32,359 nt of DNA. Origin: Candidatus Woesearchaeota archaeon (GTDB taxonomy: Archaea > Nanobdellota > Nanobdellia > Pacearchaeales > GW2011-AR1). Position 1 is the stretch's first letter. Each line of letters starts with the position of its first letter. Below are positions 3,329 to 32,359 of the stretch, piece by piece. The position numbers and the translations under genes are program-made. The stretch is taken from positions 1 through 32,359 of the forward strand of contig CAYXTT010000002.1 in NCBI GenBank assembly GCA_964468545.1, read 5' to 3'. Under the pieces are notes generated by a model. The model searched no databases, was not told where the DNA came from, and saw nothing but the letters and a program-made list of their open reading frames with translations.

Positions 3329-4042
3329 ATGACAGAACTAGAAGTACACATCAAACCAATAGGAGAACTAGGTGTAACTCAAGCAGACTCATTTATATAC
3401 CAAAGAGTAAAAGATTTTCTACTCGGAAGAATGGGAGGAAGAAATTCGGCAGGGTACAAGACAATTATGAACAGCGGATTCGATATACAAAACGCCACAG
3501 GCTCAAGTTTACCATTTATAATAGCGGCAACAGAACTACTGGAAGAAACAAATGTTGCAACGATATTATCACTTGAAGATATAATAAAAATAATCACTCA
3601 CGGAAAAGCCAATGGCAAAAATCACTTCAAAGGAATATATGTCGATACAAACGAAGCAATACTTTATTTAAACGACAACTCCTCATTATCACTTAATTTA
3701 GCAGAGATAGCAAGAAATCAAAATAATACACCTTACGACGCAGAAAACCCAGCAAGATTTACCGGATTAAGAGTAGACAAAGCCGACAACAAAGAAGGAT
3801 ATAGGCTAATAGAAACATCAAAAACACAAATAATCACAGATCCGAGATTCTCTTATTCAAACAATGAGCAAGAAATAGATTTTAATGGAACCCCCATTAA
3901 AGTTTTCACAAAAAAAACTGGCTCGTCGAGGCTTTACGCGTACGAGGACGGGCTGTACGCCGGGGACGGCGTTCCCGCGGATTCGAGCGGCGTTGGTCGC
4001 GTGGGGTTGGTTCACGCCGAAGGCGTCGGTTCGAAAAATTAG
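3329..4042 (+). CDS. DGR variable (target) protein 1, VR at the extreme C-terminus
   Basis: 237-aa ORF with no obvious signal peptide. The last ~40 codons (GSSRLYAYEDGLYAGDGVPADSSGVGRVGLV...) are encoded by a GC-rich island repeated near the RT. Paralogous to CDS 31321..32160 (GSSLPFIIAA vs GSNLPFNVLM; G-x-SR-[LV]-Y). Confidence 0.75.
   Translation: MTELEVHIKPIGELGVTQADSFIYQRVKDFLLGRMGGRNSAGYKTIMNSGFDIQNATGSSLPFIIAATELLEETNVATILSLEDIIKIITHGKANGKNHFKGIYVDTNEAILYLNDNSSLSLNLAEIARNQNNTPYDAENPARFTGLRVDKADNKEGYRLIETSKTQIITDPRFSYSNNEQEIDFNGTPIKVFTKKTGSSRLYAYEDGLYAGDGVPADSSGVGRVGLVHAEGVGSKN
3922..4004 (+). repeat. DGR variable repeat VR1
   Basis: Aligns without gaps to 4235-4317. By hand count, 64 of 82 positions are identical over 3923-4004. 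Confidence 0.8.
4014..4026 (+). other. GC-rich hairpin just 3' of VR1 (candidate DGR target-recognition hairpin)
   Basis: ACGCC-gaa-GGCGT, starting 10 nt after the last TR-homologous base and still inside the CDS. Confidence 0.45.
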
Positions 4043-4100: not shown

Positions 4101-4117
4101 CCTAGCTTGGAGCTAGG
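4101..4117 (+). other. Conserved stem-loop downstream of target gene 1
   Basis: CCTAGCT-tgg-AGCTAGG. The counterpart in cassette 2 (32185-32204, CTAACC-ttggaact-GGTTAG) keeps the ATTC...TTGGA.CT...TAGGC context but has different stem bases. Confidence 0.55.
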
Positions 4118-4234
4118 CCACACGCCTCTTTATTAGAACTCTTGAATGAGTCAGTAAAATTCAATGGCGACAACAAGTAATTGAAAATTATGAATCTTGA
4201 AGCCATGGTGGCAATTGGTAAAGAGACTATCACT

Positions 4235-4317
4235 ATCGTCGGGGCTTTACGCGGGCGAGTTCGGGCTTGTCGCCGGGTGCGGCGTTCCCGCGAATTCGAA
4301 CGACAATGGTCAAATGG
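4235..4317 (+). repeat. DGR template repeat TR1 (RT-proximal copy)
   Basis: Non-coding: it has no start codon in the VR-equivalent frame, which closes with TAG at 4320. Codons AAT, AAC, GAC, AAT, CAA and ATG at 4293-4316 correspond to VR1 GAT, AGC, GGC, GTT, CGC and GTG. All 8 mismatches there are at TR adenines. The repeat ends 16 nt before the RT ATG. Confidence 0.75.
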
Positions 4318-4333: not shown

Positions 4334-5350
4334 ATGAAAACTCACAAGAACATCTACTATAAAATCTACAAATGGGAAAACCTTCTTCTCGCCTTCTTGA
4401 AGGCGAGAAGAAGAAAATCAAAAAGAAAAGACGTAAAAGAATTCGAAGAAAACCTGATAGAAAACCTACAAGACTTACAACTCGAGCTAATGGACTCAAA
4501 CATACAAACCAAGACCACTCAAAACATTTATTCTACGAGATCCAAAAACCCGTAAAATATCCAAATCACATTTCAGGGACAGAATAATTCACCACACCCT
4601 TTGTAACATAATCGAACCAATCTTCGACAAAATCTTTATTTATGATAATTGTGCAGGAAGAAAAAACAAAGGAACATCATTCGCATTAAGAAGATTTAAG
4701 AAATTTCAAATTAAAACAACGAAGAATCTAACTTCAAGTAGTTATTGTCTAAAAGCCGATATAAAACATTACTTTGAAGAAGTCAGTCATGAAATTTTAA
4801 TTAACATTATTAAAAGAAAAATAAAAGACAAAATTGCAATACAACTAATAGTAAAGATATTAAAAAATTACCACAACAAAGAAAATGGTATGCCACTAGG
4901 AAGCTTAACAAGTCAACTCTTCACAAGTATTTATCTCAATAAACTAGATTATTTTGTTAAACATCAATTAAAAGAAAAGTACTATATAAGATACGTCGAC
5001 GATTTCCTCATATTAAATTGCTCAAGATTTAAGTTAGCATTCCTAAAAATAAAATAAAAAAATTTCTAAAAAACAATTTAAAATTAGAACTTCACAAAAG
5101 CAAATCAAAAATTATATCATTATCAAAAGTAGTAGACTTCGTAGGATTCAGAAACTACTACCACTTTAAGTTACTAAGACAAAGAAGTATAAGGGGTATG
5201 AAAAGAAAAATACAACTATTCCACAACAATCACATTCCTACAAGCGAAATCTCAGAAATATTTCAAGGATGGCAAGCACATGCAGAAATTGCCAACACAT
5301 ATAATCTAAGAGAGTGCCTAACCCAAACTTTAAAACTACCCCTTCTCTAA
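4334..5350 (+). CDS. DGR reverse transcriptase whose reading frame changes twice (possible pseudogene, assembly indels or recoding)
   Basis: Three collinear pieces. The first runs from 4334 to about 4499 in frame 2 (MKTHKNIYYKIYKWENLLLAFLKARRRKSKRKDVKEFEENLIENLQDLQLEL...). The second covers 4500-5054 in frame 0 (YKPRPLKTFILRDPKTRKISKSHFRDRIIHHTL...GMPLGSLTSQLFTSIYLNKLDYF...YIRYVDDFLIL). The third runs from about 5054-5057 to 5350, back in frame 2 (KKFLKNNLKLELHKSKSKII...VDFVGFRNYY...GWQAHAEIANTYNLR). It has an LGxxxSQ motif 4 and a YVDD catalytic motif. Confidence 0.85.
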
Positions 5351-5357
5351 TATCAAC

Positions 5358-17300: not shown

Positions 17301-17805
17301 AACAGACACAACAGACACAACATCTGGCGGTGGTAGCGACGCAGTCGCAACTTACTATCCAACAAAAGAACAACTTGCAGAAGGATACACGCTAACAATA
17401 CCAGAGAGTACCAAAGTAAAATTCTACATCGGAAACAAAAGCCACGAATTAGTAATTAATTCCATCGACAATACTACCATCAAAATAACAGTCACATCAG
17501 AACCACAAATAAAAACACTCAGAATAAACGACGAAGCAAAATTCGAACTTACCGACGATAATTTTTATGACTTCTCTGTAAAATTAGAATCAATAACAAA
17601 TTCTCAAGCAAAATTATTAATGAAAACAATATCAGAAAGTATACCAGCCAACGAACTTACCAATACACAGGAATCAAATAACGAAACACAAACAAACGGA
17701 ACTTCAAAAAACAATGCACCAATCTCCTACTGGATAACAGTTTCAATTATTTTAATTATTACCGTCGCTGTCACCGGTTATTATTATTTTAAAAAAAGAA
17801 AATAA
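14341..17805 (+). CDS. Large secreted or surface-anchored parallel beta-helix repeat protein (NosD/PbH1-like), two modules, C-terminal TM anchor
   Basis: N-terminal signal/TM segment. There are dozens of ~22-aa repeats of the type NITSNNITTSGxxxxGI and very many N-x-S/T sequons. The module end is duplicated (NIIGKGYYGGNFWTNANSNGYSDYCTN... and NIIGRSYIGGNYWTTPNGTGYSDYCTN...). A Thr-rich linker (TTTTDTTDTTSGGGS) precedes the C-terminal TM plus KKRK. Confidence 0.75.
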   Translation: MKKRAIVFTIFLSSLIILTYFISADFTDDGTSVQNVTECGILNTSYATYTLNQSMGSGADGDCLLIANDSIILDCAGFNITYGNATGGAGIYVFNESGENGFNNITIQNCILIQNITGDGDAGIQIGANSTNITLYNNTITTLGSDSNGIHFEANATNTNITSNNINISGTEVHGISFESNSVNANITSNNITTSGIESHGIFLADGSNNVNATLNIITTSGVNSSGIKIGDSSINASVNFNDITTSGSGLETCGIYLAESGTNANITSNTVNTSGEDASGIKMGDELSGLVYNNTITTSGNWSLSNAMGGIWLESDTAGINVSTNTITISGYHTAGIWAWTCDNHSIENNIITATGEADGGIVLLDTQGTNITSNTINITGDYGDGIYSFNSENSLLFYNNVITTSGTEAYGFNLNQTSNSNFSSNNITTSGTSAYGMFFNQSHNNTLANNRITTGSSTAYLLYFTTSGNQSIYDNIFNTSTTGSGIFINSSNLNYFNTSGAPFTNIIGKGYYGGNFWTNANSNGYSDYCTNINDNYYCDSPYRVVSGVDSYDYLPLTNYHTNISVCAALSVKKRYTLNQSLSSNGTCFNITTNGVQLDLAEHIITGNTTGYGVNITAHNDTTILNGSISNFSVGIYATSTTNTNITLTTISSTESNSSAITLSDADNSTINSNTITTSGNLSEGIYATSSSYCNLTNNNITTTGIGTTNSGNGSPINILNSSNYFLIYNNRINTTNANVEGIYLSNDSYGNLSSNTINTYGNKSHGLYLTTTSNNNSIISNIINTHYTGDINLYSFYAGGSSTGNNISSNNISSLANQSFGIYLSGQTNNTFVYGNRITCQGYLAISLTILDTTNATTGLIIRNNNILANHSSLGIAIATAGSVNALFYNNILNSTHGSYLGTSFNNFYSEDNLTNQWNTSKTASTNIIGRSYIGGNYWTTPNGTGYSDYCTNTDSDYICDTAYTITANNIDRYPLTNHLNTTTTTDTTDTTSGGGSDAVATYYPTKEQLAEGYTLTIPESTKVKFYIGNKSHELVINSIDNTTIKITVTSEPQIKTLRINDEAKFELTDDNFYDFSVKLESITNSQAKLLMKTISESIPANELTNTQESNNETQTNGTSKNNAPISYWITVSIILIITVAVTGYYYFKKRK

Positions 17806-20707: not shown

Positions 20708-21562
20708 ATGCAACCAAAAAAATTCGCCGTCATCGGCCACCCAATCGCACACTCCCTATCAAAACCAATGCACGAAGCAGTCTTCAAAGAACTAAAACTC
20801 CCACACACCTACGACGCAATTGATGTCGCTCCAGAAAACCTTAAAGAATTTATAGAAAACACAAACCTCGACGGCATAAACGTCACAATCCCACACAAAG
20901 TTGAAGTAATGAGATATCTCGACAAAATAAAAAACGAAGCAAAACAAATCCAAGCGGTCAACACTCTAAAATTCACCAAATCCCAAATCCCAAATCCCAA
21001 ATTCCCACAAAAATCTTCGATTTTTGGCTACAACACCGACTGGATCGGCTTCCAAAATTCTTTCAAAGAAGAAAATATAAATCTTGAAAACAAAAACATT
21101 CTCGTCATCGGCGCCGGCGGCGTCTCGCGAGCAATCCTAATTTCATTAAAAAACAACAACGCAAATATAGTCCTGACAAACCGAACAAAACAAAAAGCAA
21201 TCGACCTAAACCAGCAACTAAATCTCAACGCAGAAATTTTAGACTACAAACTACAAACTACAAACTACAAACTACCAGAAGTCGACATTATCATCAACAC
21301 AACCTCAATCGGAATGCACCCAAACACAAACGCTTCCCCAATCCCAAAAGAACTCCTAAAACCAAACCACATAATCTTCGACGCTATCTACAACCCACTC
21401 AAAACAAAACTAATCACCGACGCTGAATCAATAGGTTGCAAAACAATTTCCGGCGTAAACATGCTCGTCCACCAAGGCGCAGAATCACTCCGAATCTGGC
21501 TCGGCATCGAACCACCAATCCAAACAATGAAAGAAGCAGTCCTAAAAAAACTAATCAACTAA
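20708..21562 (+). CDS. aroE: Shikimate 5-dehydrogenase
   Basis: VIGHPIAHSLSKPMH, GINVTIPHK, AVNTL, GYNTDWIGF and VIGAGGVSRAI. Confidence 0.9.
   Translation: MQPKKFAVIGHPIAHSLSKPMHEAVFKELKLPHTYDAIDVAPENLKEFIENTNLDGINVTIPHKVEVMRYLDKIKNEAKQIQAVNTLKFTKSQIPNPKFPQKSSIFGYNTDWIGFQNSFKEENINLENKNILVIGAGGVSRAILISLKNNNANIVLTNRTKQKAIDLNQQLNLNAEILDYKLQTTNYKLPEVDIIINTTSIGMHPNTNASPIPKELLKPNHIIFDAIYNPLKTKLITDAESIGCKTISGVNMLVHQGAESLRIWLGIEPPIQTMKEAVLKKLIN
20977..21005 (+). repeat. Heptamer microsatellite inside aroE
   Basis: caaatcc x3 (20977-20997) plus the variant caaattcc. It encodes the extra loop between the AVNTL and GYNTD motifs. Confidence 0.8.
21244..21276 (+). repeat. Heptamer microsatellite inside aroE
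   Basis: ctacaaa x4 (21244-21271) plus the partial unit ctacc. It encodes YKLQTTNYKL. Confidence 0.8.
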
Positions 21563-21936
21563 TTCCCAAATCCCAAAATATCCATTCTCTTTACAACCAT
21601 TCTCTCAGACTTCCCAATCTTCCACGAACCAGTCTTCATCAAAATTCCCTTCTTCATATCCCGACGCAAAAATTTATTCACCACAACATCACTTTTCCCA
21701 TCCCTCCAATCCTGCGAATATCTCGCACAAAAAATCGCCGCCTCTTTCAAATCTTCCTTCGATGGCTTCTCTCCAATATTCACAAACGGACTTCCTGGCT
21801 CAGCAGTGTGCAGCATCAAATCGTTCCGCTCAGCCGCCCGAACCAACTCGTCATTATTCTCCGCATTACGCCCGCCAAAAATTTTCCGCCCCGACGACAA
21901 AACAAACTCCCGAAATTTCATATAATAAAACAACAA
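21559..21936 (-). CDS. NFACT-R/DUF814-like RNA-binding protein
   Basis: SSGRKIFGGRNAENNDELV....DLMLHTAEPGSPFVNI and AAIFCARYSQ...VVVNKF. Overlaps the aroE stop by 4 nt. Confidence 0.6.
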   Translation of the reverse strand: MLFYYMKFREFVLSSGRKIFGGRNAENNDELVRAAERNDLMLHTAEPGSPFVNIGEKPSKEDLKEAAIFCARYSQDWRDGKSDVVVNKFLRRDMKKGILMKTGSWKIGKSERMVVKRMDILGFGN

Positions 21937-22004
21937 ACTAACTTATTAAACTTCCCAATTTAAAATCCGTGTTACTTCTTTTTCTATATTATAACATAAA
22001 CTAA

Positions 22005-22619
22005 CTAAAATTCGTTTTCATTCCCGATTTTCTTGTTCGACATTTCTTTAATCCTCTTCAACGCCGCCCGAACATTCTTGTTCAACTGCACAATCGAATC
22101 ATCCAACTGCGCCCGATTTTTCGTCCCAGTGCAAACCAACTTCCCATTACTAAACAACAAAAAAGTCGCCGTCGGGTCATCCAACTTATAAACCAAACCA
22201 GGAAACTGTTCCGGCTCATACTCAGTATTTTCCAACTCCAACGCCAAAACATTCAAATTCAAATCCAAATTAATCGCTCCCGACGCAACAACATTCTGCA
22301 CCGTAATCTTCGGCTTAATCGTCACATTCACTCCAATTTTCCTCAACTGCTTAATCACCTGTTGCACAACATCCTTAACCTGCGCAACCGACTTCGTCCC
22401 TGTACAAACCAAATTTCCCGACGAGAAAACCAACACCGCACTCTTCGGCTTCTTCACTCTCAAAATCAAACCAGGAAAAGTATCAGGATTATATTCAGTA
22501 TTTGGTTGCGTCCTCGCCAACTTCGTCAATGAAACGTCCTTACCCAAAGAAGCCGTCGCAACAATATTTTGAATTTTCAAAAAAGTGTCCTTTTTCTCAG
22601 AAGTTTTCGCTACTGTCAT
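22005..22619 (-). CDS. tbp: TATA-box binding protein
   Basis: Two direct repeats: IQNIVATASLG...FPGLILRVKKPKSAVLVFSSGNLVCTGTKS and VQNVVASGAIN...FPGLVYKLDDPTATFLLFSNGKLVCTGTKN. Confidence 0.95.
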   Translation of the reverse strand: MTVAKTSEKKDTFLKIQNIVATASLGKDVSLTKLARTQPNTEYNPDTFPGLILRVKKPKSAVLVFSSGNLVCTGTKSVAQVKDVVQQVIKQLRKIGVNVTIKPKITVQNVVASGAINLDLNLNVLALELENTEYEPEQFPGLVYKLDDPTATFLLFSNGKLVCTGTKNRAQLDDSIVQLNKNVRAALKRIKEMSNKKIGNENEF

Positions 22620-22666
22620 AGGATACTATAAAAAATTTCCTTTATAAAGGCTTCGAAGAAACTTAC

Positions 22667-23035
22667 TCATTCAAATCCATTCGCCCTAAGGACAATTGAA
22701 AGCTCCCTCGGAGTAACATTTATTCCCTGACAAGAAGATACACTAACTGTTTTTTTATAAGACACATCAGACAAAAGTAGTTCACCCCCCCCCCTAATAC
22801 CAACATAATAAACAACTTTATCCTTATCTTGAAAAATATTACCGCCCATCAAAAAAGAAGAAAGTAATTCTTCAATATTATCATTTTTATTTCTCATAAA
22901 CAAACCCTTATAAGTTCCACTATTAATGGGTCCTTCAGATTTATACTCCCTCACCCAAACTTTATTAAACATAATAATAACACAAACAATTCCTTTATAA
23001 AAATTTATATACTCAAAAATACAACAATCAATCAA
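22667..23035 (-). CDS. Hypothetical protein (start uncertain)
   Basis: 122-aa ORF. The internal MFNKVWV is an alternative start. No recognisable domain. Contains a G10 run on its coding strand. Confidence 0.4.
   Translation of the reverse strand: MIDCCIFEYINFYKGIVCVIIMFNKVWVREYKSEGPINSGTYKGLFMRNKNDNIEELLSSFLMGGNIFQDKDKVVYYVGIRGGGELLLSDVSYKKTVSVSSCQGINVTPRELSIVLRANGFE
22785..22794. repeat. C10 (G10 on the coding strand) homopolymer inside CDS 22667..23035
   Basis: ttcacccccccccctaatac encodes the GGG in GIRGGGEL. It stands out in an AT-rich genome. Confidence 0.8.
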
Positions 23036-23114
23036 GTCAATATTAAATAGACAACGAAGTCGCCCAATAATATAACACTACTAACTACCAGCGAAGCGAA
23101 CTACCAACTACTTA

Positions 23115-24860
23115 CTACCCCGCTTCCCCTTCAACCTCATTCAGCGTCGCAATATCATCAACCCCCCTGTCCGCCCTCAATCTCAAAATCCGAGGAAACC
23201 TCAAAGCAAACCCAGAAGAATTCGTCGGCGACCTCTGCACATTTTGATACTGAACCGAAACAACAATCTCAGGCCGAACCTTAATCTTCCGCCCCTCAAC
23301 TTCAACAACCAACTTCTCTAACATGTCCGTCATCTCCTTAAAACTCAATCCTTCCTCCGGTTTTTCCTTCAATCCCGTCGACACTTTCCCAATTTCTAAA
23401 AATTCCCCCTCGTTGCTCAAATCTTCCCCGCCGACCAGCGACGAGCGACTATCCACTAGCGACGAGTTTCGACATGCAATGTCAAAACTCGTCAGCCATC
23501 CTGCCCGTTTCCCCGTCCCCCACTTCGCCCCGGTAATCACCAAATCAAAATCATTATCCTCCGGCTTCAACTTCACCGCATAGCCAACACGAGCTCCCGG
23601 TTTATACGGCGCCGACAAACTTTTCCCCATCAACCCCTCTTGATTCTCACTCAGCGCCTCCTCGTAAAATTTCTCAACAACATCATTATCGTCGGTAATA
23701 ATCTGTTTCGCCAGAACAATCCGCCTCTCATCCTCGTGAACAATCTTCTCAATCAATGCACGTCTCTCGCCAAACGCCGTCTCAATCAAACTCCCCCCAT
23801 TGTAATAAATCACATCAAAAATCGTCAACTCAATCGGCAACTTCGCAATCATTTCGGTAATCCCATACTTCCGTTTAATCCTCTGGCTAATCGCCTGAAA
23901 ATCCGTATACTTCCCCGTCCTCGCGTCGAACCCAACCGCCTCCGCATCCAAAATAAAACTTTTACCGTCGACGTTCTTCTCGACATACTTCACAATATCT
24001 GGAAACTGCTTAGTAACTTCTTCAAGTCGCCGAGTAAAAATTTTTATCTTCCCGTTCTTTTCTTTATTAACCATAACCCTAAACCCATCATACTTATACT
24101 CAAACGCCGCCGGCCGCCCAACAATCCGAAACGCATCTTCAACATCTTTCGCTTTCGGAAACAACATAACTTTCACAGGCTTCCCCGGCACCAACTTAAT
24201 TTTCTCCAACGAATCATCGCACGCCCTCTCAAAAACCTCAGCAAAATCCGTTACCTTGTCATACGCCTCCTGAACTTCTTTAACACAAATTTTTTTATCA
24301 TTCAAATCTTTTGGCTCGAAACAATTAACAACAATCGCATCTCTCAAAATCCCAGAACCAACCCCAATTTTCAAATCTCCCAAAACCGTCCTCACAATAT
24401 ATTTCGCCTCTTCCATCGTCGCTGAATGCAGCAACTCAACAATCAACCCAATCTTCATATCAACAGTTCCTTTCCCCTCGAAACTCGGAATCTTCCTTAA
24501 ATTCTCCATAACTTTTTCAACACTTAACTTCCCAGAAAATAACGCCCTCTGTTTCTTTTTCTCCAAAACATCCTCGGCAACTTTTCCCAAATCACCGAAC
24601 TTCTTGAATTTCTCAACAACCTCATTTTCGCCAATCCCAGCTGTCCGCGAAATCGCCTTAATCATCAACTGATGCGAAATTCCCAACTCTCGATTATCAT
24701 AATCCGCAAAAACTCGCCCCTGCAAAAGATAAATAATCTCTGGCTCTCCACGAATTTCCCCCAAAAAATTTGCCAATATCTCGGTTTTATAGAGCCCTTT
24801 CGTCGTCGATTCCAGCGCCATATAAATTTCACAAATTCTCGAATAATTCATAAAATACAA
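23115..24860 (-). CDS. lig: ATP-dependent DNA ligase
   Basis: Adenylation motif FEYKYDGFRV, LDAEAV, EGLMGKSL..PYKPGAR and KLKPE. 581 aa. Confidence 0.95.
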   Translation of the reverse strand: MYFMNYSRICEIYMALESTTKGLYKTEILANFLGEIRGEPEIIYLLQGRVFADYDNRELGISHQLMIKAISRTAGIGENEVVEKFKKFGDLGKVAEDVLEKKKQRALFSGKLSVEKVMENLRKIPSFEGKGTVDMKIGLIVELLHSATMEEAKYIVRTVLGDLKIGVGSGILRDAIVVNCFEPKDLNDKKICVKEVQEAYDKVTDFAEVFERACDDSLEKIKLVPGKPVKVMLFPKAKDVEDAFRIVGRPAAFEYKYDGFRVMVNKEKNGKIKIFTRRLEEVTKQFPDIVKYVEKNVDGKSFILDAEAVGFDARTGKYTDFQAISQRIKRKYGITEMIAKLPIELTIFDVIYYNGGSLIETAFGERRALIEKIVHEDERRIVLAKQIITDDNDVVEKFYEEALSENQEGLMGKSLSAPYKPGARVGYAVKLKPEDNDFDLVITGAKWGTGKRAGWLTSFDIACRNSSLVDSRSSLVGGEDLSNEGEFLEIGKVSTGLKEKPEEGLSFKEMTDMLEKLVVEVEGRKIKVRPEIVVSVQYQNVQRSPTNSSGFALRFPRILRLRADRGVDDIATLNEVEGEAG

Positions 24861-24908
24861 AATATTCTTTCAATTAAATAACTTCCGAGTTAACACCGCT
24901 CCCAAAAG

Positions 24909-24917
24909 TTTATAAAA
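24909..24917 (+). promoter_or_regulatory. TATA-like box upstream of thioredoxin
   Basis: tttataaaa lies 21-29 nt upstream of the ATG at 24938. Confidence 0.45.
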
Positions 24918-24937
24918 AATCCTAACCAAATTACAAA

Positions 24938-25261
24938 ATGGAAATCAACGTAACCGACATAACTTTCAAAAAAGAAGTCATTGAAAAATCAAAAACAATT
25001 CCAGTCCTCGTCGACTTCTGGGCAGAATGGTGCGGTCCGTGCATAATATTAAAACCAATTCTTGAAAAACTCGCAAAAGAATTCAACGGCAAACTCATTC
25101 TCGCAAAAGCCGAAACAGACAAAAATCAAGAACACGCAAGCGAATACGAAGTTATGTCAATCCCATCTGTAAAACTTTTTAAAAACGGAAAAGTCGTCGA
25201 CGAATTTATCGGCGCCCAACCCGAAGCCACAATCAAGCAATGGCTTAACCAAAAACTCTAA
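24938..25261 (+). CDS. trxA: Thioredoxin
   Basis: VLVDFWAEWCGPC active site. 107 aa. Confidence 0.9.
   Translation: MEINVTDITFKKEVIEKSKTIPVLVDFWAEWCGPCIILKPILEKLAKEFNGKLILAKAETDKNQEHASEYEVMSIPSVKLFKNGKVVDEFIGAQPEATIKQWLNQKL
25203..25240 (+). repeat. Left copy of a 38-nt perfect direct repeat (inside the trx 3' end)
   Basis: aatttatcggcgcccaacccgaagccacaatcaagcaa is identical to 25836-25873. Confidence 0.9.
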
Positions 25262-25609
25262 TCACTTTATAAAAAAATCAATCTTGTCTTTCACTTGCCT
25301 GTAAAAATCTTTTTTTACCGTCGCCAAATTTTTGATAATAATTCTTTCATCAATAGTAAAAATCCTATGAGGTTTAATCCAACTCTTAAACGGTAACTTT
25401 CCCTTAGCAAAACTTCCTCTCGAAATCAGAACTCCATTCTTAGGACTATTGGAAGTAACCAAACAACAAATTTTATCCTCACCCTTCAAGTTAGAATTAG
25501 AAACAATCATCGCGGGTCTTCTTTTCACGCCAGCCAAATCAGAATAAGGAAACGGAATCAAAACAATATCCCCTTGCTCAAACATTATTCCATTCCTCAT
25601 CGACTTCAT
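25262..25609 (-). CDS. mazF: PemK/MazF-family toxin
   Basis: GDIVLIPFPYSDLAGVKRRPAMIVS...CCLVTS....G.LPFKSWIKPHRIFTIDERII. The likely start is at MFEQGD (25585), which overlaps the antitoxin stop by 8 nt. Confidence 0.7.
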   Translation of the reverse strand: MKSMRNGIMFEQGDIVLIPFPYSDLAGVKRRPAMIVSNSNLKGEDKICCLVTSNSPKNGVLISRGSFAKGKLPFKSWIKPHRIFTIDERIIIKNLATVKKDFYRQVKDKIDFFIK

Positions 25610-25808
25610 TATCCCAGTCTTTTTTCAAAACATCCTCAGACGCCAACATCGCAAGAATCCCCTCGCTGTTTTTATCACCCTTAATCAAATTGAGTTCCGC
25701 CACCTTCTGACGAATCGCCTTTCTAATAAACTCGCTCCATCTAATTTCAGAATACCTTTTCATTAAACCATAAGTTTCATCTTCGATAGACAACGTAATA
25801 TTAGTCAT
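25578..25808 (-). CDS. Ribbon-helix-helix (CopG-like) antitoxin
   Basis: ITLSIEDETYGLMKR....WSEFIRKAIRQKV, with an acidic tail. Lies upstream of the toxin gene and overlaps it. Confidence 0.6.
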   Translation of the reverse strand: MTNITLSIEDETYGLMKRYSEIRWSEFIRKAIRQKVAELNLIKGDKNSEGILAMLASEDVLKKDWDNEVDEEWNNV

Positions 25809-25835
25809 AACAAATTAAGTGGCATCACTTATTTA

Positions 25836-25873
25836 AATTTATCGGCGCCCAACCCGAAGCCACAATCAAGCAA
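25836..25873 (+). repeat. Right copy of the 38-nt direct repeat (orphan trx 3' end, would encode FIGAQPEATIKQQLN-stop)
   Basis: Identical to 25203-25240. The offset is 633 nt. Confidence 0.9.
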
Positions 25874-25894
25874 CAGCTCAACTAAAAATTATAG

Positions 25895-26212
25895 TTACAA
25901 AAATTCTCTACGATTTGAATATTCCAGTAACTCCGCTTTCGCCATTCTTAATCTATATTTATCTGTTTCAGATAATTCTCCTCCCATCGCTATCATTTCC
26001 AAAGCGAAATCATAATTTCCAAGATATTTAAATTTCTTATCATAAACTTTCAAGACGACATATCTCTCAATCATTTTTTCAATACACGATTCAGAAGGAC
26101 GAGACAATCTTCCATTACACGCTTTAATGACATATTCGATATCTCCAACTACAACTCCCATCATCGCCCTAAGACGCCCTTCATTTTTTGCCGTTTCAAC
26201 AATGTCTTCCAT
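25895..26212 (-). CDS. Hypothetical protein
   Basis: 105-aa ORF with no recognisable motif. Confidence 0.4.
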   Translation of the reverse strand: MEDIVETAKNEGRLRAMMGVVVGDIEYVIKACNGRLSRPSESCIEKMIERYVVLKVYDKKFKYLGNYDFALEMIAMGGELSETDKYRLRMAKAELLEYSNRREFL

Positions 26213-26246
26213 AAAAATCTTAAAATTATTTATTAGAATGAATGAA

Positions 26247-26813
26247 TCAATTCCCTCGTTTCCGATTAGCCTTCAAACTCGGTCTAACCTTCGGAGCTCT
26301 AATCGAGGAATTCCTCAACCCTCTAGCCTTCCTTCCAGCAGAAGTCAGCCCCCTCAACGCTCTCGCCCTTGGCGCCGCAACAAACTTTCCCAAATCTTTG
26401 TCGCTCAAAATTCCCGGCTCACTCCTGTCAACCAAAATCACTTCATAAAAATAATTCATCCCATCTTTCCCAACCCAATACGAACCAAGAACTTCCATAT
26501 TATTAAATTTCCTTGCGACCCTCATCTCCGCAATCTCCTTGTAATTCATTTTCAAATTCTTTCTATTGTGTAATCTCTTCGTTCGCCTCGCCTTATTCGG
26601 CCTCGTCTTTTTATGCCCACCCCGCAAAATTTTAATCCTAACAACGACAACACCCTTCTTCGCCTTATATCCCAAAACCCTCGCTCTATCTAATCTCAAC
26701 GGCTTCTCTACCCTCATGATAGCCCCACCCCTTCGCCACTCCGTCATCCGAGCCCTCAAAACTTTTACATCGGGCTTCTTCCACGCCTCTCGCAAATATT
26801 TCGCAATTCCCAT
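26247..26813 (-). CDS. rpl15e: Ribosomal protein L15e
   Basis: KYLREAWKKP, RLDRARVLGYKAKKGVVVVRIKILRGG and SYWVGKDGMNYFYEVILVD. Confidence 0.9.
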   Translation of the reverse strand: MGIAKYLREAWKKPDVKVLRARMTEWRRGGAIMRVEKPLRLDRARVLGYKAKKGVVVVRIKILRGGHKKTRPNKARRTKRLHNRKNLKMNYKEIAEMRVARKFNNMEVLGSYWVGKDGMNYFYEVILVDRSEPGILSDKDLGKFVAAPRARALRGLTSAGRKARGLRNSSIRAPKVRPSLKANRKRGN

Positions 26814-26949
26814 TAGTAAAAATCCACGAACTTTTTACTCCCGCATTTTTCCAAAAGAAAAACAAGACAATCGTTTTTCTTCGATTTACAAAATTTAATT
26901 ACCATATTACATTATCAAAAATTCGGTTTTTAAAACTTCGCTTCAACTA

Positions 26950-27023
26950 TGAGGCTGCCAAGATTTGAACTTGGGACCCCTGCCTTATCAGAGCAGTGCG
27001 CTACCTGGCTGCGCCACAGCCTC
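26950..27023 (-). tRNA. tRNA-Ile (anticodon GAU)
   Basis: Hand-folded cloverleaf: acceptor GAGGCTG/CAGCCTC, D arm GCGC/GCGC, anticodon arm CTGCT-CTGATAA-GGCAG, T arm CCAAG-TTCAAAT-CTTGG. CCA is not encoded. Confidence 0.9.
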
Positions 27024-27055
27024 ACACAACAATAATCAAAAATTACTTTATAAAA

Positions 27056-27658
27056 TTACCTTAATTCCACAAAAACTTTCTCACTCTTCACGCGATACTC
27101 AATCACTTCAACTTTCAATGGAATAAACTTAACATAACATTTATCTTTCGAATAAGCCCGAATTTCCAACCCCGTCGCCAATTCAGTAACAACAACATTA
27201 TTCCTATCATGAACTCCTGGTGTCTCAATTTCGTAAATAATTCTATCAGCCAACCTTCGAACTTTCGATTCGGCCTCGACTTTCTTCAACTTCATCCTTC
27301 GCTCGTTTTCTTCAATAGAAACTTTCGCAACTTCCCTCTTTTCTTTCGGCGCCTCCCGAATAATCTGTTTCATCTGCGGATTCCCTTTAACAATATTAAT
27401 TCTAATCCCCTTGGGCATTCCATCAAAATTCACATTACCCATTTGTTTTTCCAATTGCTTCACCAAAGAATTCATAATCTTATCCATCCCAAACGGCAAC
27501 TTTTGTTCAATCTCAACACCATCCCCAAAATCATCTGCTCCCAATATTCCAAAATCACCTTTTTCTCGTCGCACCTTGAACGATTCCCCACAGTAAGGAC
27601 AAAAATTAAATTTCCTGTCAATCTTCTTCCCACACGACACGCACTTTCTTTTAAACAT
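27056..27658 (-). CDS. Zinc-ribbon protein with a C-terminal Hsp20/alpha-crystallin-like region
   Basis: CVSCGKKIDRKFNFCPYCG at the N-terminus. The C-terminal beta-rich segment (IIYEIETPGVHDRNNVVVTELATGLEIRA) resembles ACD/CS domains, but the match is tentative. Confidence 0.45.
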   Translation of the reverse strand: MFKRKCVSCGKKIDRKFNFCPYCGESFKVRREKGDFGILGADDFGDGVEIEQKLPFGMDKIMNSLVKQLEKQMGNVNFDGMPKGIRINIVKGNPQMKQIIREAPKEKREVAKVSIEENERRMKLKKVEAESKVRRLADRIIYEIETPGVHDRNNVVVTELATGLEIRAYSKDKCYVKFIPLKVEVIEYRVKSEKVFVELR

Positions 27659-27698
27659 ACATATAAAAATAATTCCCCCTATTTAAATTTCACTATCT

Positions 27699-29126
27699 CT
27701 AAACATAATGCTCAACACTTCCAACCAAATGCTCAAGATAATGAACCTCTCTAACAATCCCCTGCATCGGTCTAAATTCTCTAATTAAATAATTCGACGA
27801 AAACTTCCGAACATGCCTAACCTCTCTCAAAAATTTCAAACCAACAATCGCAACAAAAAATCTTCCCACAGCCGAAACAGCGAATATAAACAAAATTGGA
27901 TTCATAAACGAAACATTAATCCAAGCCAGCAACGAACCCAAACTCGCCCCGACAAACACACCAATCCCGACAATCAAATTCATATAAGTCAAACCGAAAC
28001 TTCTCTTTGGCCCGCTCACCGCATCATAAACATAATTATTCACAGCCAAATTATAACCAGCCCATCCAAACCCGCCGACAATCGATGGCACTATCAACAA
28101 ATATAATTTCATCATCAAGCCACCTCCAATAAATATCGACGCAATCCACAACAATGGACCAATCGCAATAGCCCACGAACAAATAGCCACCAATTTAATA
28201 TTTCCAAATCTGTCAGACACTTTCCCAAGCAACGGCAAAAAAATCAACTGAAAAATAACCGACGAAACCGTCACAAGTATATACCAAACATAAGAAAAAC
28301 CCAAATTTCTCAACATGTAAACCGCCCAAAACGGACCAGCAATAGCAGCGACAAAATTTAACGCCCCCATAAATAAACTAAATCGCCCAAACGGAGTTTC
28401 AAAAGATTTTCTCAAGAATTGCCAAAACGAAAAATAATCTTTCTTCCTGATTCTAATTCTCGGTTCATATTGTTTCCTCAATAAATTCAGCGACCAAATT
28501 CTAATCAAAGCCGAAAGAACAAATAAAAAACCAAACCCAAGCAAAGTAAATCCAATAACATTACCGCGAAGAACTCCAACCTCCTTCGACGCATCAAGAA
28601 TAACAGCACCAATAACCATCGTCAACACTCCAAAAAATCCAATTACCCGATTCCTTCTTGAAAAATATTCTCCTCGTTTCTCTTCGGGAACAATCGAACC
28701 CATCCACGAAAACCACGCCGGATGAGAAATTGCAGTAAGCACATAAAATAAACTAACAAGTCCGATAAAAATCCAAACCATATAAGGAACGCCAAGATAA
28801 AATAATAATCCAGTCGCAAGAATCGGAATCCAAAGCAAAATTTTTCCAAACACACCACCCAAAACTAACTCCTTCCTCGAGAATCTTTTAAGCAACTTGG
28901 CCGTTTTTAGTTGCACAATGCTCGGCAACAAACTCGTAATAGCATATAAAATTCCAACTTGCGTCGACGTCGCGTTCATAGCCAACGCAAACGGAGAAAA
29001 ATAAGACAATCCAAATCCCGACGACATCGAATCCACCGAACCCTCTCGCACACTCAAATTCAAACTCTCGTCAATTTTTTTAGCGACAATCGGATGATTA
29101 ACATTAGCCTCTTTCACCTTCCTCAT
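27699..29126 (-). CDS. MFS-type multi-pass membrane transporter
   Basis: 475 aa with about 12 or more hydrophobic helices and a central charged loop (RKQYEPRIRIRKKD). Confidence 0.7.
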   Translation of the reverse strand: MRKVKEANVNHPIVAKKIDESLNLSVREGSVDSMSSGFGLSYFSPFALAMNATSTQVGILYAITSLLPSIVQLKTAKLLKRFSRKELVLGGVFGKILLWIPILATGLLFYLGVPYMVWIFIGLVSLFYVLTAISHPAWFSWMGSIVPEEKRGEYFSRRNRVIGFFGVLTMVIGAVILDASKEVGVLRGNVIGFTLLGFGFLFVLSALIRIWSLNLLRKQYEPRIRIRKKDYFSFWQFLRKSFETPFGRFSLFMGALNFVAAIAGPFWAVYMLRNLGFSYVWYILVTVSSVIFQLIFLPLLGKVSDRFGNIKLVAICSWAIAIGPLLWIASIFIGGGLMMKLYLLIVPSIVGGFGWAGYNLAVNNYVYDAVSGPKRSFGLTYMNLIVGIGVFVGASLGSLLAWINVSFMNPILFIFAVSAVGRFFVAIVGLKFLREVRHVRKFSSNYLIREFRPMQGIVREVHYLEHLVGSVEHYV

Positions 29127-29176
29127 TTAATTTTCAAGCCAAAACATTTTAAAAACATAACCATTTAGAACAACCG

Positions 29177-29247
29177 GCGTGGATAGTATAATGGTAGTAT
29201 GTAAGCTTCCCAAGCTTGAGACCCGGGTTCAATCCCCGGTCCGCGCA
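29177..29247 (+). tRNA. tRNA-Gly (anticodon CCC)
   Basis: Acceptor GCGTGGA/TCCGCGC, anticodon arm TAAGC-TTCCCAA-GCTTG, T arm CCGGG-TTCAATC-CCCGG, discriminator A. Confidence 0.85.
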
Positions 29248-29329
29248 TTTTATTTGTAGAATATACAATATTCAAAAATATACAATAAATAATACAATGC
29301 ATTATAAACTATCTCAATGAAAAATATTT

Positions 29330-29812
29330 ATGGCAGAAGAATACGGTTTTAAAAAAATGGTTGAAAGTGCATCAACCGGAAAAAGATTGTCTCGTATGGA
29401 AATCATCGAAGAGAAATCAGAAGATAGAGAATTATATCGTATAAGACTAAATGGAATAGGGAATAGAAAGGGGCATTCTGAAATTACAATTAGATAAGTT
29501 GAGGGAAGCATAGGATTAGATGATTATGTCGAATTACTCAGAGAGAACAAAGGATTTGAGGAAGATATTGCGTTACTAAAAAAATTAATGTTCGAAGATT
29601 TAGGAGCTGTCGCATCTGGAGCAGTAAAAAATTTAAGACATTATAAATCAGAAAAAGGATGGACCACATCCTTTCAAGTAGCGAAAAAACAAGAAACACA
29701 AAAAGCCCTTCATGATTACATAGGTATTTCTTTAGAGATCATGGGTGGTTTCTTTAGAGAATATGGCCCAATAGATTTAGCTTTCCTGGCAAGAGAAAGA
29801 GATGGAAGATAA
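29330..29812 (+). pseudogene. Hypothetical ORF interrupted by one in-frame TAA (29495-29497)
   Basis: ATG at 29330 opens MAEEYGFKKMVESASTGKRLSRMEIIEEKSEDRELYRIRLNGIGNRKGHSEITIR, then TAA. The same frame continues VEGSIGLDDYVELLRENKGFEEDIALLKKL and joins track ORF 29588..29812. Confidence 0.4.
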
Positions 29813-29834
29813 ACATATATTGCAAAATAACAAC

Positions 29835-29844
29835 CTTTAATAAT
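29835..29844 (+). promoter_or_regulatory. TATA-like box upstream of metG
   Basis: ctttaataat lies 20-29 nt upstream of the ATG at 29864. Confidence 0.45.
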
Positions 29845-29863
29845 CTTTTCCGAATATAATTAC

Positions 29864-31261
29864 ATGAAAAAATTTTATGTAACGACGCCAATTTATTACC
29901 CAAACGACATCCCACACATCGGACACGCATACACGACAATAGCAGCAGACATCCTCGCACGATGGCACAAACTCAAAGGCGAAGAAGTATTTTTCTTAAC
30001 TGGAACCGACGACCACGGAAAAAAAATCGCCGAAGCCGCAAAAAAAACAGGCAAGTCGCCAAAGGAATTCACCGACGACCTAATCCCAAAATTCAAAGAC
30101 GCATGGAAAAAACTAAACATTAACTACGATAGATTCATAAGAACAACTGACCCCGACCACGAAAAAATCGTCCAGGAAATCTTGCAAAAAGTTTATGACA
30201 ATGGCGACATTTACAAAGGAGAATACGAAGGATTTTATTGCACCGGTTGCGAAGCATACTACACCGAAAAAGACCTCGACAACGGCAACTGCCCAATTCA
30301 CAAAACAAAAATAGAAAAACTAAAAGAAGAAACCTACTTCTTCAAACTTTCAAAATATCAAGACAAACTTCTAGACTTCTATAAACGAAACCCGAACTTC
30401 ATTTTACCAAAACACCGAAGACAAGAAATCATCAACAGAGTAAAAGAAGGATTAAAAGATTTGAGCATTTCAAGAAACTCATTTAACTGGGGAATAAAAC
30501 TTCCATTTGACAAATTGCATATAACATACGTTTGGTTCGACGCACTTTTCAATTATTATTCCGCAACAAGACAAAAAGGAAAAGAAAAATTCTGGCCCGC
30601 CGATATTAATCTAATTGGCAAGGACATACTCTGGTTCCACACGGTATACTGGCCCGCATTTTTGATGTCAGCCGGAATCAAACCGCCAAAGTCGGTATAC
30701 GCACACGGATGGTGGACATTTAATAAAGAAAAAATTTCAAAATCACGCGGAAAAGTAATCAATGTCGACGAATTAATAAAAATTGCCGGAGTCGATTCGG
30801 CAAGATATTTTCTCTTCAGAGAATCATCATTCGGCGAAGACGGAGACTTCTCCGAAACAGCATTGATAAATCGCCACAACAACGAACTCGCAAACAAGCT
30901 CGGCAATCTCATCTCACGGACTTCAGCTCTCGTCGAGAAATACGGGATTGAAGAAAATCCAAACACATTATTAAAAAAACCAATCCTAAAAAAAATAGAA
31001 AACTACATGGACAAATTTGAACTCGACAAAGCTCTAAGTGAAATTTTCGCGTTAATAGATATTTGCAACGAATTTATTCAAACAAAAAAACCTTGGGAAA
31101 CCCACGACAAAAAAGTCCTCTATCAATTAGTCGACTCAATCCGCCAAATCGCAAAACTCCTATCGCCATTCATTCCCGAGTCCGCAGAAAAAATTTCAAA
31201 GATTTACAAAACCGACAAAATTATAAAATCCCCAATACTATTTAATAAAATAATTCAGTAG
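29864..31261 (+). CDS. metG: Methionyl-tRNA synthetase (short form)
   Basis: PIYYPNDIPHIGHAYT (HIGH), Zn knuckle CTGCEAYY...CPIH, and KISKSRG (KMSKS). Confidence 0.9.
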   Translation: MKKFYVTTPIYYPNDIPHIGHAYTTIAADILARWHKLKGEEVFFLTGTDDHGKKIAEAAKKTGKSPKEFTDDLIPKFKDAWKKLNINYDRFIRTTDPDHEKIVQEILQKVYDNGDIYKGEYEGFYCTGCEAYYTEKDLDNGNCPIHKTKIEKLKEETYFFKLSKYQDKLLDFYKRNPNFILPKHRRQEIINRVKEGLKDLSISRNSFNWGIKLPFDKLHITYVWFDALFNYYSATRQKGKEKFWPADINLIGKDILWFHTVYWPAFLMSAGIKPPKSVYAHGWWTFNKEKISKSRGKVINVDELIKIAGVDSARYFLFRESSFGEDGDFSETALINRHNNELANKLGNLISRTSALVEKYGIEENPNTLLKKPILKKIENYMDKFELDKALSEIFALIDICNEFIQTKKPWETHDKKVLYQLVDSIRQIAKLLSPFIPESAEKISKIYKTDKIIKSPILFNKIIQ

Positions 31262-31291
31262 TCTTTCTTAAGAAGTAACAAAATAGAAAAG

Positions 31292-31300
31292 TTTATAAAT
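31292..31300 (+). promoter_or_regulatory. TATA-like box of DGR target gene 2
   Basis: tttataaat lies 21-29 nt upstream of the ATG at 31321. Confidence 0.5.
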
Positions 31301-31320
31301 TAAGAAATTCTAAATCTCTT

Positions 31321-32160
31321 ATGATAAAATTAGGAACAGCGCCAATAATTCAAGTGCCAGAACAAGAATTTGGTTTCTATAGTCGTCCGGATTTAGCAGG
31401 CAAAACTTTTTTAGAAGCATTTGAAAAAGAATTGAGACAATACAATCCAGAAACTCTAAAAAAAGCATTAAACGGAGAATTTTACTTCGACAGCGACGGA
31501 ACATTAAGAGGTTCAAATTTACCTTTTAATGTTTTAATGAATCATAAAAATCTTTTCCCCGAAGACGAACATCCTTTATCAATCGCAGAATTCGGTCAAG
31601 CATTTAACAAAAACCCAGAAGCTTCCAAAGAAATATACGCAGACACCGGGATTATAGCAAGGACACCAAACGATTATTTTTCAGAAAATATAATTAAACA
31701 AATAAAAGCAAGAGGAAAAACACCAACTCCAGAAGAACCAATAGTAATATCCAACACAGACCTAATTCCAATACAAAATAAAGAGTCCCGTTGCGGATTT
31801 GTTTACAAAATAAAAGACAGAGACGGCGAAGAATTAATAGTAGCCCCAGCATATGGAACAGCAGAAACCATAACAAAATTCACAATCTACGACGAAAGAG
31901 GAATTCCTATCCCATCCGAAAGAGGAGATAAACAAATCTGGAAAGGAGATTCTGGCGTGTCGAGAGTTTATTCTAGCTACGGCCAGGTCGTGGGCTCGGG
32001 CGACGAGCGCCTGGCGAGTTCAGGCGGCGGCGGCAGGGTAGTGGTGGGGAAGGCCAATGTTCCGCAAAATATTGTTGAAATAGAAAAGTTAGTTCAGCAA
32101 GAAGAAAAAAGAATAAAAATGGCAAAAAAAGATTTAGAAAAAAGAGTAGCAAAGTTATAA
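31321..32160 (+). CDS. DGR variable (target) protein 2, with the VR near the C-terminus followed by a coiled-coil tail
   Basis: 279-aa paralog of CDS 3329..4042. The GC-rich segment GVSRVYSSYGQVVGSGDERLASSGGGGRVVVG is repeated downstream at 32305 onward. Confidence 0.7.
   Translation: MIKLGTAPIIQVPEQEFGFYSRPDLAGKTFLEAFEKELRQYNPETLKKALNGEFYFDSDGTLRGSNLPFNVLMNHKNLFPEDEHPLSIAEFGQAFNKNPEASKEIYADTGIIARTPNDYFSENIIKQIKARGKTPTPEEPIVISNTDLIPIQNKESRCGFVYKIKDRDGEELIVAPAYGTAETITKFTIYDERGIPIPSERGDKQIWKGDSGVSRVYSSYGQVVGSGDERLASSGGGGRVVVGKANVPQNIVEIEKLVQQEEKRIKMAKKDLEKRVAKL
31954..32049 (+). repeat. DGR variable repeat VR2 (3' limit inferred from the GC-rich island)
   Basis: 31954-32008 aligns without gaps to 32305-32359, with 48 of 55 positions identical by hand count. 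The rest of the TR lies beyond the window. Confidence 0.7.
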
Positions 32161-32184
32161 AAGCCTAAATTTATTCAAAAAATT

Positions 32185-32204
32185 CTAACCTTGGAACTGG
32201 TTAG
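32185..32204 (+). other. Conserved stem-loop downstream of target gene 2
   Basis: CTAACC-ttggaact-GGTTAG, homologous in position and context to 4101-4117. Confidence 0.5.
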
Positions 32205-32304
32205 GCTACATGTTGATTAATTTATAATTCAATCACAACAATTAGTAGTTTGCGCGAAAATTGAAGTGATGGTGATTTACTTTCAATTAATCAACTATAT
32301 AGTC

Positions 32305-32359
32305 GGCGTGTCGAGAGTTTTTTCTGCCTACGACCAGGTCGCGGACTCGGGCAACGAGC
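32305..32359 (+). repeat. DGR template repeat TR2 (partial, truncated by the window edge)
   Basis: GAC, GAC and AAC codons here correspond to GGC, GGC and GAC in VR2 (A to G at 32333, 32345 and 32353). It is preceded by an AT-rich leader homologous to the one upstream of TR1. Confidence 0.6.

Follow-up and report, generated by a model that had tools for sequence, protein, structure and literature searches.

A probable chromosomal diversity-generating retroelement with an RT-16 leader RNA, and its decayed paralogue, in a DPANN archaeon

A stretch of 32,359 nt on the forward strand of contig CAYXTT010000002.1 (GCA_964468545.1), from a Candidatus Woesearchaeota archaeon and referred to here as the window, ends inside a genetic element that is very probably a complete, recently active chromosomal diversity-generating retroelement (DGR) of a DPANN (Woesearchaeota-like) archaeon. 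The element, called cassette 2, consists of a target gene with its variable repeat (VR), an RNA of the RT-16 family, the template repeat (TR), a 24-nt spacer and a gene for reverse transcriptase (RT), in that order. A paralogous element in the same window, cassette 1, has decayed. An earlier reading made from the sequence alone had already taken cassette 2 for a DGR, and this interpretation is supported by a non-coding template, an intact RT and adenine-specific mismatches across the full repeat.

The repeats, the template and the reverse transcriptase

Sequence past the edge of the window was read from a contig, L001 (JGI 3300028168, Ga0268277_1000920), which was recovered by exact-protein look-up. 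It is 99.98% identical to window positions 21320-32359 over 11,040 nt and reaches 8.5 kb further. Related elements were collected by a genome scan, which gave eight loci in metagenome-assembled genomes of Woesearchaeota, Pacearchaeota and Nanoarchaeota, and by a metagenome scan, which gave at least 507 relatives of the RT.

The sequence-only reading had noticed that the segment at 31954-32008, inside the target gene, recurs at 32305-32359. The two copies are indeed identical at 48 of 55 positions (repeat family D15), and the seven mismatches are as it described them, three having an A downstream where the gene has G (32333, 32345 and 32353). The repeats have a G+C content of 0.68 and 0.62, compared with 0.39 for the whole window. 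The adenine bias falls short of significance if the window alone is considered: the downstream copy has nine adenines in 55 nt and three of the seven mismatches fall on them (hypergeometric p=0.078). The window does end within the repeat, as had been stated; L001 carries 33 nt more, for a total of 88 nt. All six mismatches found past the edge are template-A to gene-G, which brings the full repeat to 9 of 13 at adenines (p=7e-5). In L002, a contig from another sample, VR and template disagree at 12 positions; in 11 of these the template has an adenine, and the VR has G or T in its place (p=2.6e-8). The orthologous locus L007/L015 has 15/15 mismatches at template A within an 86-nt repeat; the span compared was 88 nt, and two additional mismatches fall past the end of the repeat. 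The same pattern occurs in L016, L018, L021, L022, L025 and L048. At loci with both repeats on one contig, the A-specific fractions were 15/15, 13/14, 8/8, 10/10, 16/18 and 13/13.

The downstream copy is an 88-nt non-coding template: no forward-strand open reading frame (ORF) covers it in L001, and its in-frame translation meets a TAA. The outcome that had been named as refuting the DGR reading, that the copy is the start of a coding paralogue, finds no support. At the 3′ boundary the last bases are AGGGTAG in VR2 and AGAATAG in the template, and this GG/AA difference is present in 5/5 pairs of the cassette-2 type (L001, L002, L015, L016 and L025). It is similar to the motif for initiating mutagenic homing (IMH) and its template counterpart, TGGGGT and TGGAAT, in the DGRs of the Nanoarchaeota DUSEL4 (PMC4372165), and many of the related templates collected here end in the DUSEL4 IMH* motif TGGAAT itself. 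The GRA-loop hairpin reported in DUSEL4 target genes (PMC4372165) is seen in cassette 1 and not convincingly in cassette 2, where single-sequence folding of the region 3′ of VR2 found nothing better than a weak candidate of 7 bp that includes one mismatch (z=-1.1).

An RT had been predicted within about 100 nt of the window edge. An intact RT ORF of 339 aa starts 58 nt beyond it in L001, with its ATG 24 nt after the end of the template. Extension past the edge by way of L001, in line with the check that had been proposed, supplies both the rest of the TR and an RT well inside the limit of about 1 kb that had been set. RT2 matches Pfam RVT_1 (E=6e-17), and its best match in the PDB is 8ub7_A (E=1e-41), followed by group II intron RTs (3e-21). 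Both motifs of DGR RTs, [I/L]GxxxSQ and YxDD, are found, as LGNLTSQ and YVDD. The segment IPLGNLTSQFFAN (IPLGNLTSQ) and YVDD align opposite I181/G182/Q187 and D215/D216 of 8ub7_A, which are the residues named for bRT (Handa et al., bioRxiv 10.1101/2023.10.23.563531). We take 8ub7_A to be the Bordetella phage DGR enzyme because its residue numbers equal those given for bRT; the code itself is unconfirmed from that preprint. The NCBIfam models nearest to RT2, one for Drt3a and one for a group II intron RT/maturase, score far under their cut-offs.

It is hardly conceivable that the downstream copy is something other than a DGR template, be it a simple segmental duplication, a piece of a retron or group II intron, or the beginning of a further coding paralogue. 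The weak adenine bias of the in-window segment and the NCBIfam ranking could be read in that way, but an RT gene begins within 24 nt of the end of the copy, the bias is overwhelming across the full repeat and the orthologues, an Rfam scan shows RT-16 only, with no group II intron or retron RNA, and the best structural relative of RT2 is a DGR RT. A non-DGR origin is refuted by the lack of an ORF together with the adenine-specific mismatches.

Accessory proteins of DGRs are Avd, HRDC, MSL and CH1; the gene avd is present in 74% of DGRs, and one lineage is without it (PMC5758913). No ORF for an accessory protein was found within cassette 2, and 0/10 small ORFs in the window and L001 (about 40 kb) match an Avd family in Pfam.

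The RT-16 leader and a probable long-range helix

Both cassettes had been described as having the same hairpin and AT-rich leader before the template. The likeness is real, and the leader is more than a hairpin: it is a member of the curated RNA family RT-16 (RF03019). Both matches cover the full model, positions 1-158, and exceed the gathering score of 50 (Table 1). RT-16 was found at 20/20 related loci, each time ending at the 5′ boundary of the template, and it lies directly 5′ of a DGR template in 22/22 cases. The stem of its P1 hairpin reads CCUAGCU/AGCUAGG in cassette 1, with two compensatory changes. RT-16 is one of the families RT-1 to RT-19, which were described as 'nearby to RT genes'; only RT-10, the Sp region of the phage element, was tied to a DGR (Weinberg et al. 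2017, PMC5737381). A scan for sigma-70 promoters and terminators was uninformative for an archaeon, and the one match that it gave at the hairpin is on the wrong strand.

A single-sequence fold of the 270-nt RNA was mildly better than shuffles (z=-1.7) and suggested a long-range pairing, which was therefore tested by covariation in 58 distinct loci registered by fixed sequence anchors. One partner, strand U, consists of the P1 3′ arm and the next three bases (...GGYUA, then CAYG). It is complementary to the bases that start at the last T of the template (...AAU, then RGCC...). In this helix 79% of cells were paired, compared with 64.4±1.2% after shuffling (0/500) and 24-49% with the partner slid, and 9 of the 12 pairs change on both sides. 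At the pair beside an invariant A-U, 38 loci have U-A and 20 have C-G, with none unpaired; similarity between two hairpins cannot explain this pair because it lies outside P1. The RT-16 hairpin 3′ arm, with its invariant A end followed by CAYG, would thus form a covarying helix of 8-9 bp with the bases from the last T of the TR and may close a domain of leader plus template. The Rfam model of RT-16 omits this pairing of the P1 3′ arm with the template 3′ flank.

The element may be compared with that of Bordetella phage BPP-1 (mtd-avd-TR-brt). The two share an RT clade, an adenine-specific flow from TR to VR, and a template flanked by mutually pairing RNA segments. Unlike the phage element, cassette 2 has no Avd and a VR half as long, and it is chromosomal, among housekeeping genes. 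In the phage, one RNA duplex joins upstream and downstream segments (the 'cPRT stop') and another joins template and primer, ending in the priming adenosine; such duplexes have been predicted in 207 Avd-containing DGRs (Handa et al., bioRxiv 10.1101/2023.10.23.563531). By analogy, the helix between strand U and the post-TR bases is likely to be the counterpart of one of them, either template:primer or the cPRT stop. The phage Sp RNA (Rfam RT-10), of about 140 nt, lies 3′ of the TR, whereas RT-16, of about 120-220 nt here, lies 5′ of it. In this clade the RT gene follows the template after a gap of just 24-40 nt, from which we infer that the RNA scaffold is upstream of the template and that the layout is permuted with respect to the phage.

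If the mechanism known from Bordetella phage applies, a transcript spanning RT-16, TR and spacer would be bound by the RT, and the TR would be copied into complementary DNA (cDNA) with misincorporation opposite adenines. The cDNA would then replace the VR, recoding about 10 positions in a 30-residue surface patch of the target protein. RT-16 would serve as the RNA scaffold of an Avd-less clade. A broader proposal, possible but doubtful, is that the abundant Avd-less clade of DPANN DGRs to which these loci belong has an RNA architecture permuted relative to that of Bordetella phage. RT-16 might then be an RT-binding scaffold that supplies the strand pairing with the template 3′ boundary, with the invariant A of that strand, before CAYG, placed like the phage priming adenosine; priming and delimitation of the template could in this way proceed without an accessory protein.

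Probable recent activity of cassette 2 and decay of cassette 1

The evidence for activity, a VR that varies beside a constant TR, comes from assembled contigs rather than reads. L001 and L002 differ at nine of 8,840 nt; seven of the nine lie in the VR, inside a 40-nt stretch, and TR2 is identical. It follows that the element was recently active. At four of the seven the present template has an adenine, and the outcome is G in some cases and T in others. Among the five members of the 90% cluster of the target protein, residues 1-214 are invariant and variation is found at 215-241, plus two C-terminal changes. When sister templates from L015, L016, L024 and L025 were aligned, A was present at three of the four columns where the window pair has a non-A mismatch (17, 22 and 23). 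There the window VR keeps states derivable from those adenines, the window template reads T, G and C, and the L002 VR copies the present template. The template therefore lost its adenines after the window VR tract was written, and the L002 VR represents a later homing event. As read from sequence, the order of template changes and the VR polymorphism are good indirect evidence of recent activity.

Several points weigh against this view of cassette 2 as complete and recently active. The RT and the last 33 nt of TR2 are taken from another assembly, of the same population, and not from the contig of the window. A search of 40 kb revealed neither Avd nor any other accessory gene. The long-range helix overlaps Rfam P1, and the two cannot form in full simultaneously. 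For the VR/TR pair of the window 4/13 mismatches are off adenine, and all nine A-mismatches are A to G, so that selection or ordinary transitions could partly mimic the pattern. Between the two VR alleles the 3′ half does not differ, and both have the same C-to-T change, one that is off adenine (column 38). A single 3′-anchored homing event should not leave this pattern, and recombination between alleles or chimeric assembly could contribute. Transcription, cDNA synthesis and homing are deduced from sequence.

Some of these points would fit a cassette that is complete but no longer diversifying, the differences between strains being old alleles reshuffled by recombination, or assembly chimeras. 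Besides the shared 3′ half and column 38, this explanation draws on the occurrence of all four combinations of VR and C-terminal alleles, which points to recombination or chimeric contigs, and on the loss of about six adenines from TR2 relative to sister templates. It is nevertheless unlikely, given the concentration of differences in the VR, the two outcomes at present adenines, an intact RT, an RT-16 score well above threshold, and the L002 allele, which matches the already altered template at three non-A columns and so was written after the template changed. Recent diversification of cassette 2 remains the preferred reading.

Two observations on these contigs may be added. Each of two VR alleles is found together with each of two C-terminal alleles (I265K plus K270I), in P0001, P0008, P0009 and P0010 (31954-32160); these four combinations imply either recombination within about 100 nt or chimeric assemblies. 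In L004 (4001-4726), L005 and L006, codon 211 of target 2 is joined straight to the template and continues into the RT, with exactly 351 nt deleted, and the product is a protein of 241 aa (P0011). Simple k-mer collapse is an unlikely origin because exact runs shared by VR and TR are only about 16 nt long, unless TR-identical VR alleles exist; the alternative is real VR-TR recombination.

Cassette 1 is a fossil, a decayed paralogue that is no longer diversified. To cover RT1, tblastn needs frames +3, +1 and +3. Seven other assemblies carry the same RT1 lesions, VR1 and TR1 and show no indels relative to one another. At the orthologous locus L102 the RT is intact and all mismatches, 13/13, are A-specific. 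TR1 and VR1 share GGCGTT where L102 reads GACAAT; the explanation is either a copying of mutagenised information into the template or conversion of the TR by the VR. The sequence-only reading had proposed duplication of the whole element and a comparison of the two RTs. The cassettes are paralogous, as it supposed, and the comparison shows that the duplication is old: RT1 and RT2 share 74% of nucleotides, whereas RT1 groups with L102 (82%) and RT2 with L015, L016 and L025 (82-85%). They are therefore old paralogues, each with orthologues elsewhere.

It had also been suggested that the second RT could serve cassette 1 in trans. Cassette 1 retains its RT-16 RNA and a 9-bp helix between strand U and the post-TR bases even though RT1 is a pseudogene, and the 3′ third of VR1/TR1 differs at template adenines only. 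Remote diversification has been raised for the RT-less cassettes of DUSEL4 (Paul et al., PMC4372165). Yet VR1 and TR1 are identical in the window and the seven assemblies, which include two samples with the alternative VR2 allele (ERZ27248920 and ERZ27248953), and the sole variant of the target 1 protein, A110P, is outside VR1. Most adenines have gone from the 5′ two-thirds of TR1, and RT-16 and the template-flank sequences differ between the cassettes. Diversification of cassette 1 by RT2 is thus unsupported and very unlikely; decay without diversification is preferred.

Erosion is visible in both templates. TR2 has 19 adenines, compared with 25-29 in the two sister templates counted, and about 12 have been lost from TR1. 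The replacements are of the kinds produced by adenine mutagenesis, which suggests occasional homing into, or conversion of, the template.

Table 1. Features of the two cassettes in the window
Feature	Position	Strand	Description
Target gene 2	31321..32160	+	ORF of 279 aa; unnamed DGR target family, internal variable region, C-terminal helix
Variable repeat VR2	31954..32041	+	88 nt, codons 212-241 of 279; aligned to template
3′ end of VR2	32032..32041	+	GGCAGGGTAG, template GGCAGAATAG; fixed GG/AA difference resembling IMH/IMH*
RT-16 RNA, cassette 2	32184..32303	+	Rfam RF03019, 83.2 bits; between target gene and template
P1 hairpin of RT-16	32184..32205	+	UCUAACC, 8-nt loop, GGUUAGG; Rfam consensus structure; the hairpin of the sequence-only reading
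Strand U	32197..32208	+	CTGGTTAGGCTA, then CAYG box; long-range partner at L001 11070-11081, outside the window
Template repeat TR2, first 55 of 88 nt	32305..32359	+	Other 33 nt past the window edge; full TR2 at L001 10985-11072
Target gene 1	3329..4042	+	237 aa; paralogous target of the fossil cassette; identical in 10 contigs
Variable repeat VR1	3923..4004	+	Invariant in seven other assemblies
Hairpin ACGCC-GAA-GGCGT in target gene 1	4014..4026	+	10 nt after VR1; GRA trinucleotide loop; complementarity only
RT-16 RNA, cassette 1	4101..4235	+	Rfam RF03019, 85.5 bits
Template repeat TR1	4236..4317	+	Eroded; about 12 adenines lost in the 5′ two-thirds relative to the orthologous L102 template
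RT1 pseudogene	4334..5352	+	Two frameshifts and in-frame stops; about 70% protein identity to RT2

The minimum-energy fold of the stretch at 4014-4026 did not choose the GAA-loop hairpin.

Target proteins, genomic setting and significance

Target 2 had been called a paralogue of target 1, and so it is, at a distance (BLASTP 26% identity, E=8e-6); the GS.LPF and G.SR motifs on which that claim rested do align. Among 109 family members G64 and S65 are at least 90% conserved. A profile search found at least 673 cluster representatives. The family is large but unnamed, with no Pfam model, and neither single-sequence nor profile searches of Pfam, NCBIfam and PDB sequences gave a match. By eye, no N-terminal signal sequence was apparent. 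An AlphaFold2 model of target 2 built on the 109-sequence alignment has a predicted local distance difference test (pLDDT) score of 92.4 and a helix at residues 251-278. It superseded a model from a 13-sequence alignment (pLDDT 66.7), whose Foldseek matches were meaningless. With the pLDDT-92 model, Foldseek returned nothing below E=1.8 in the PDB, nor below 0.054 in BFVD. Weak, non-significant matches recur to NKG2D, TaqVP, viral C-type lectins and crAss-like tail-collar fibres, and from the model a divergent C-type lectin fold is plausible. AvpA of DUSEL4, which has that fold (Handa et al. 2016, PMC5006420), resembles target 2 in being a single domain of about 250 aa with a VR of about 27 residues near the C terminus. 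In both, the end of the VR encodes a non-variant strand (RFxGV in AvpA, GRVVV in target 2) and a C-terminal tail of about 40 residues follows. The two have no sequence relation even with the 109-sequence profile, and Foldseek does not retrieve AvpA.

Publications on DPANN already describe genomes with several paralogous DGRs, fossil cassettes, the GG/AA end motif and orphan targets whose VR is internal (PMC4372165, PMC5006420, PMC5758913). Like the DGRs of DUSEL4 and other DPANN (PMC4372165; for the Candidate Phyla Radiation (CPR)/DPANN set, PMC5758913), those described here comprise multiple cassettes in a small genome, fossil or RT-less cassettes, paralogous RTs, 'orphan' targets, and a short VR internal to the target gene. 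A difference is that here the target gene and the RT have no ORF between them, and hence there is no Avd-like candidate. The likeness rests on published descriptions of the DUSEL4 elements, not on comparison with their sequences.

L015 and L016 keep the order metG, target, TR, RT, tRNA_bind, ParA; L017, L024, L025 and L048 keep part of it. The DGR sits exactly between the body of metG, which encodes methionyl-tRNA synthetase (29864-31261, 465 aa), and a separate gene for a tRNA-binding domain (L001 12118-12456), which is the metG C-terminal domain (TIGR00399, 127 bits, cut-off 116.65). In close relatives (70-83% identity) the two are either fused (about 600 aa) or split. In split relatives the slot holds chorismate mutase (L103/L104), histidine phosphatase and a gene of no assigned function (L105/L106), or a 53-aa ORF (L107). 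The slot has the look of an insertion hot spot, and the idea that insertion of the DGR split metG was rejected as stated, since close split relatives carry other cargo there. Each cassette directly follows a class I aminoacyl-tRNA synthetase gene of the same strand (899-3274 and 29864-31261). As a property of the whole clade this adjacency was rejected, because it is seen in few of about 80 related loci; coincidence together with synteny is the probable cause.

Elsewhere in the window, a 63-nt direct repeat, 87% identical (25203-25265 and 25836-25898), brackets genes for a PemK toxin and a ribbon-helix-helix (RHH) antitoxin. One copy is the 3′ end of a thioredoxin gene, and the pair looks like the footprint of a toxin-antitoxin insertion. 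An ORF of 1,154 aa (14341-17805) contains numerous degenerate repeats of about 26 residues, their period being 78 nt (families D1-D3, D7 and D9), and probably encodes a repeat-rich surface protein. There are two tRNA genes, at 26950-27023 (-) and 29177-29247 (+), with Rfam tRNA scores of 67 and 64 bits.

Cassette 2 is one more DGR in a group of archaea already known to have several per genome. What is modestly new is RT-16 as a 5′ leader with a covarying helix, evidence at the level of contigs for recent homing and template erosion, and a large unnamed target family. The 32-kb stretch offers a natural example of an active cassette and a decayed paralogue side by side, in which allelic contigs show which part of the VR was rewritten and templates lose adenines over time. 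Of wider use is that the orphan RNA RT-16 can be assigned to the region flanking DGR templates on the 5′ side, and that covariation supports a helix between it and the template 3′ end. This gives an RNA construct with which to probe how a DGR that lacks Avd primes and bounds cDNA synthesis.

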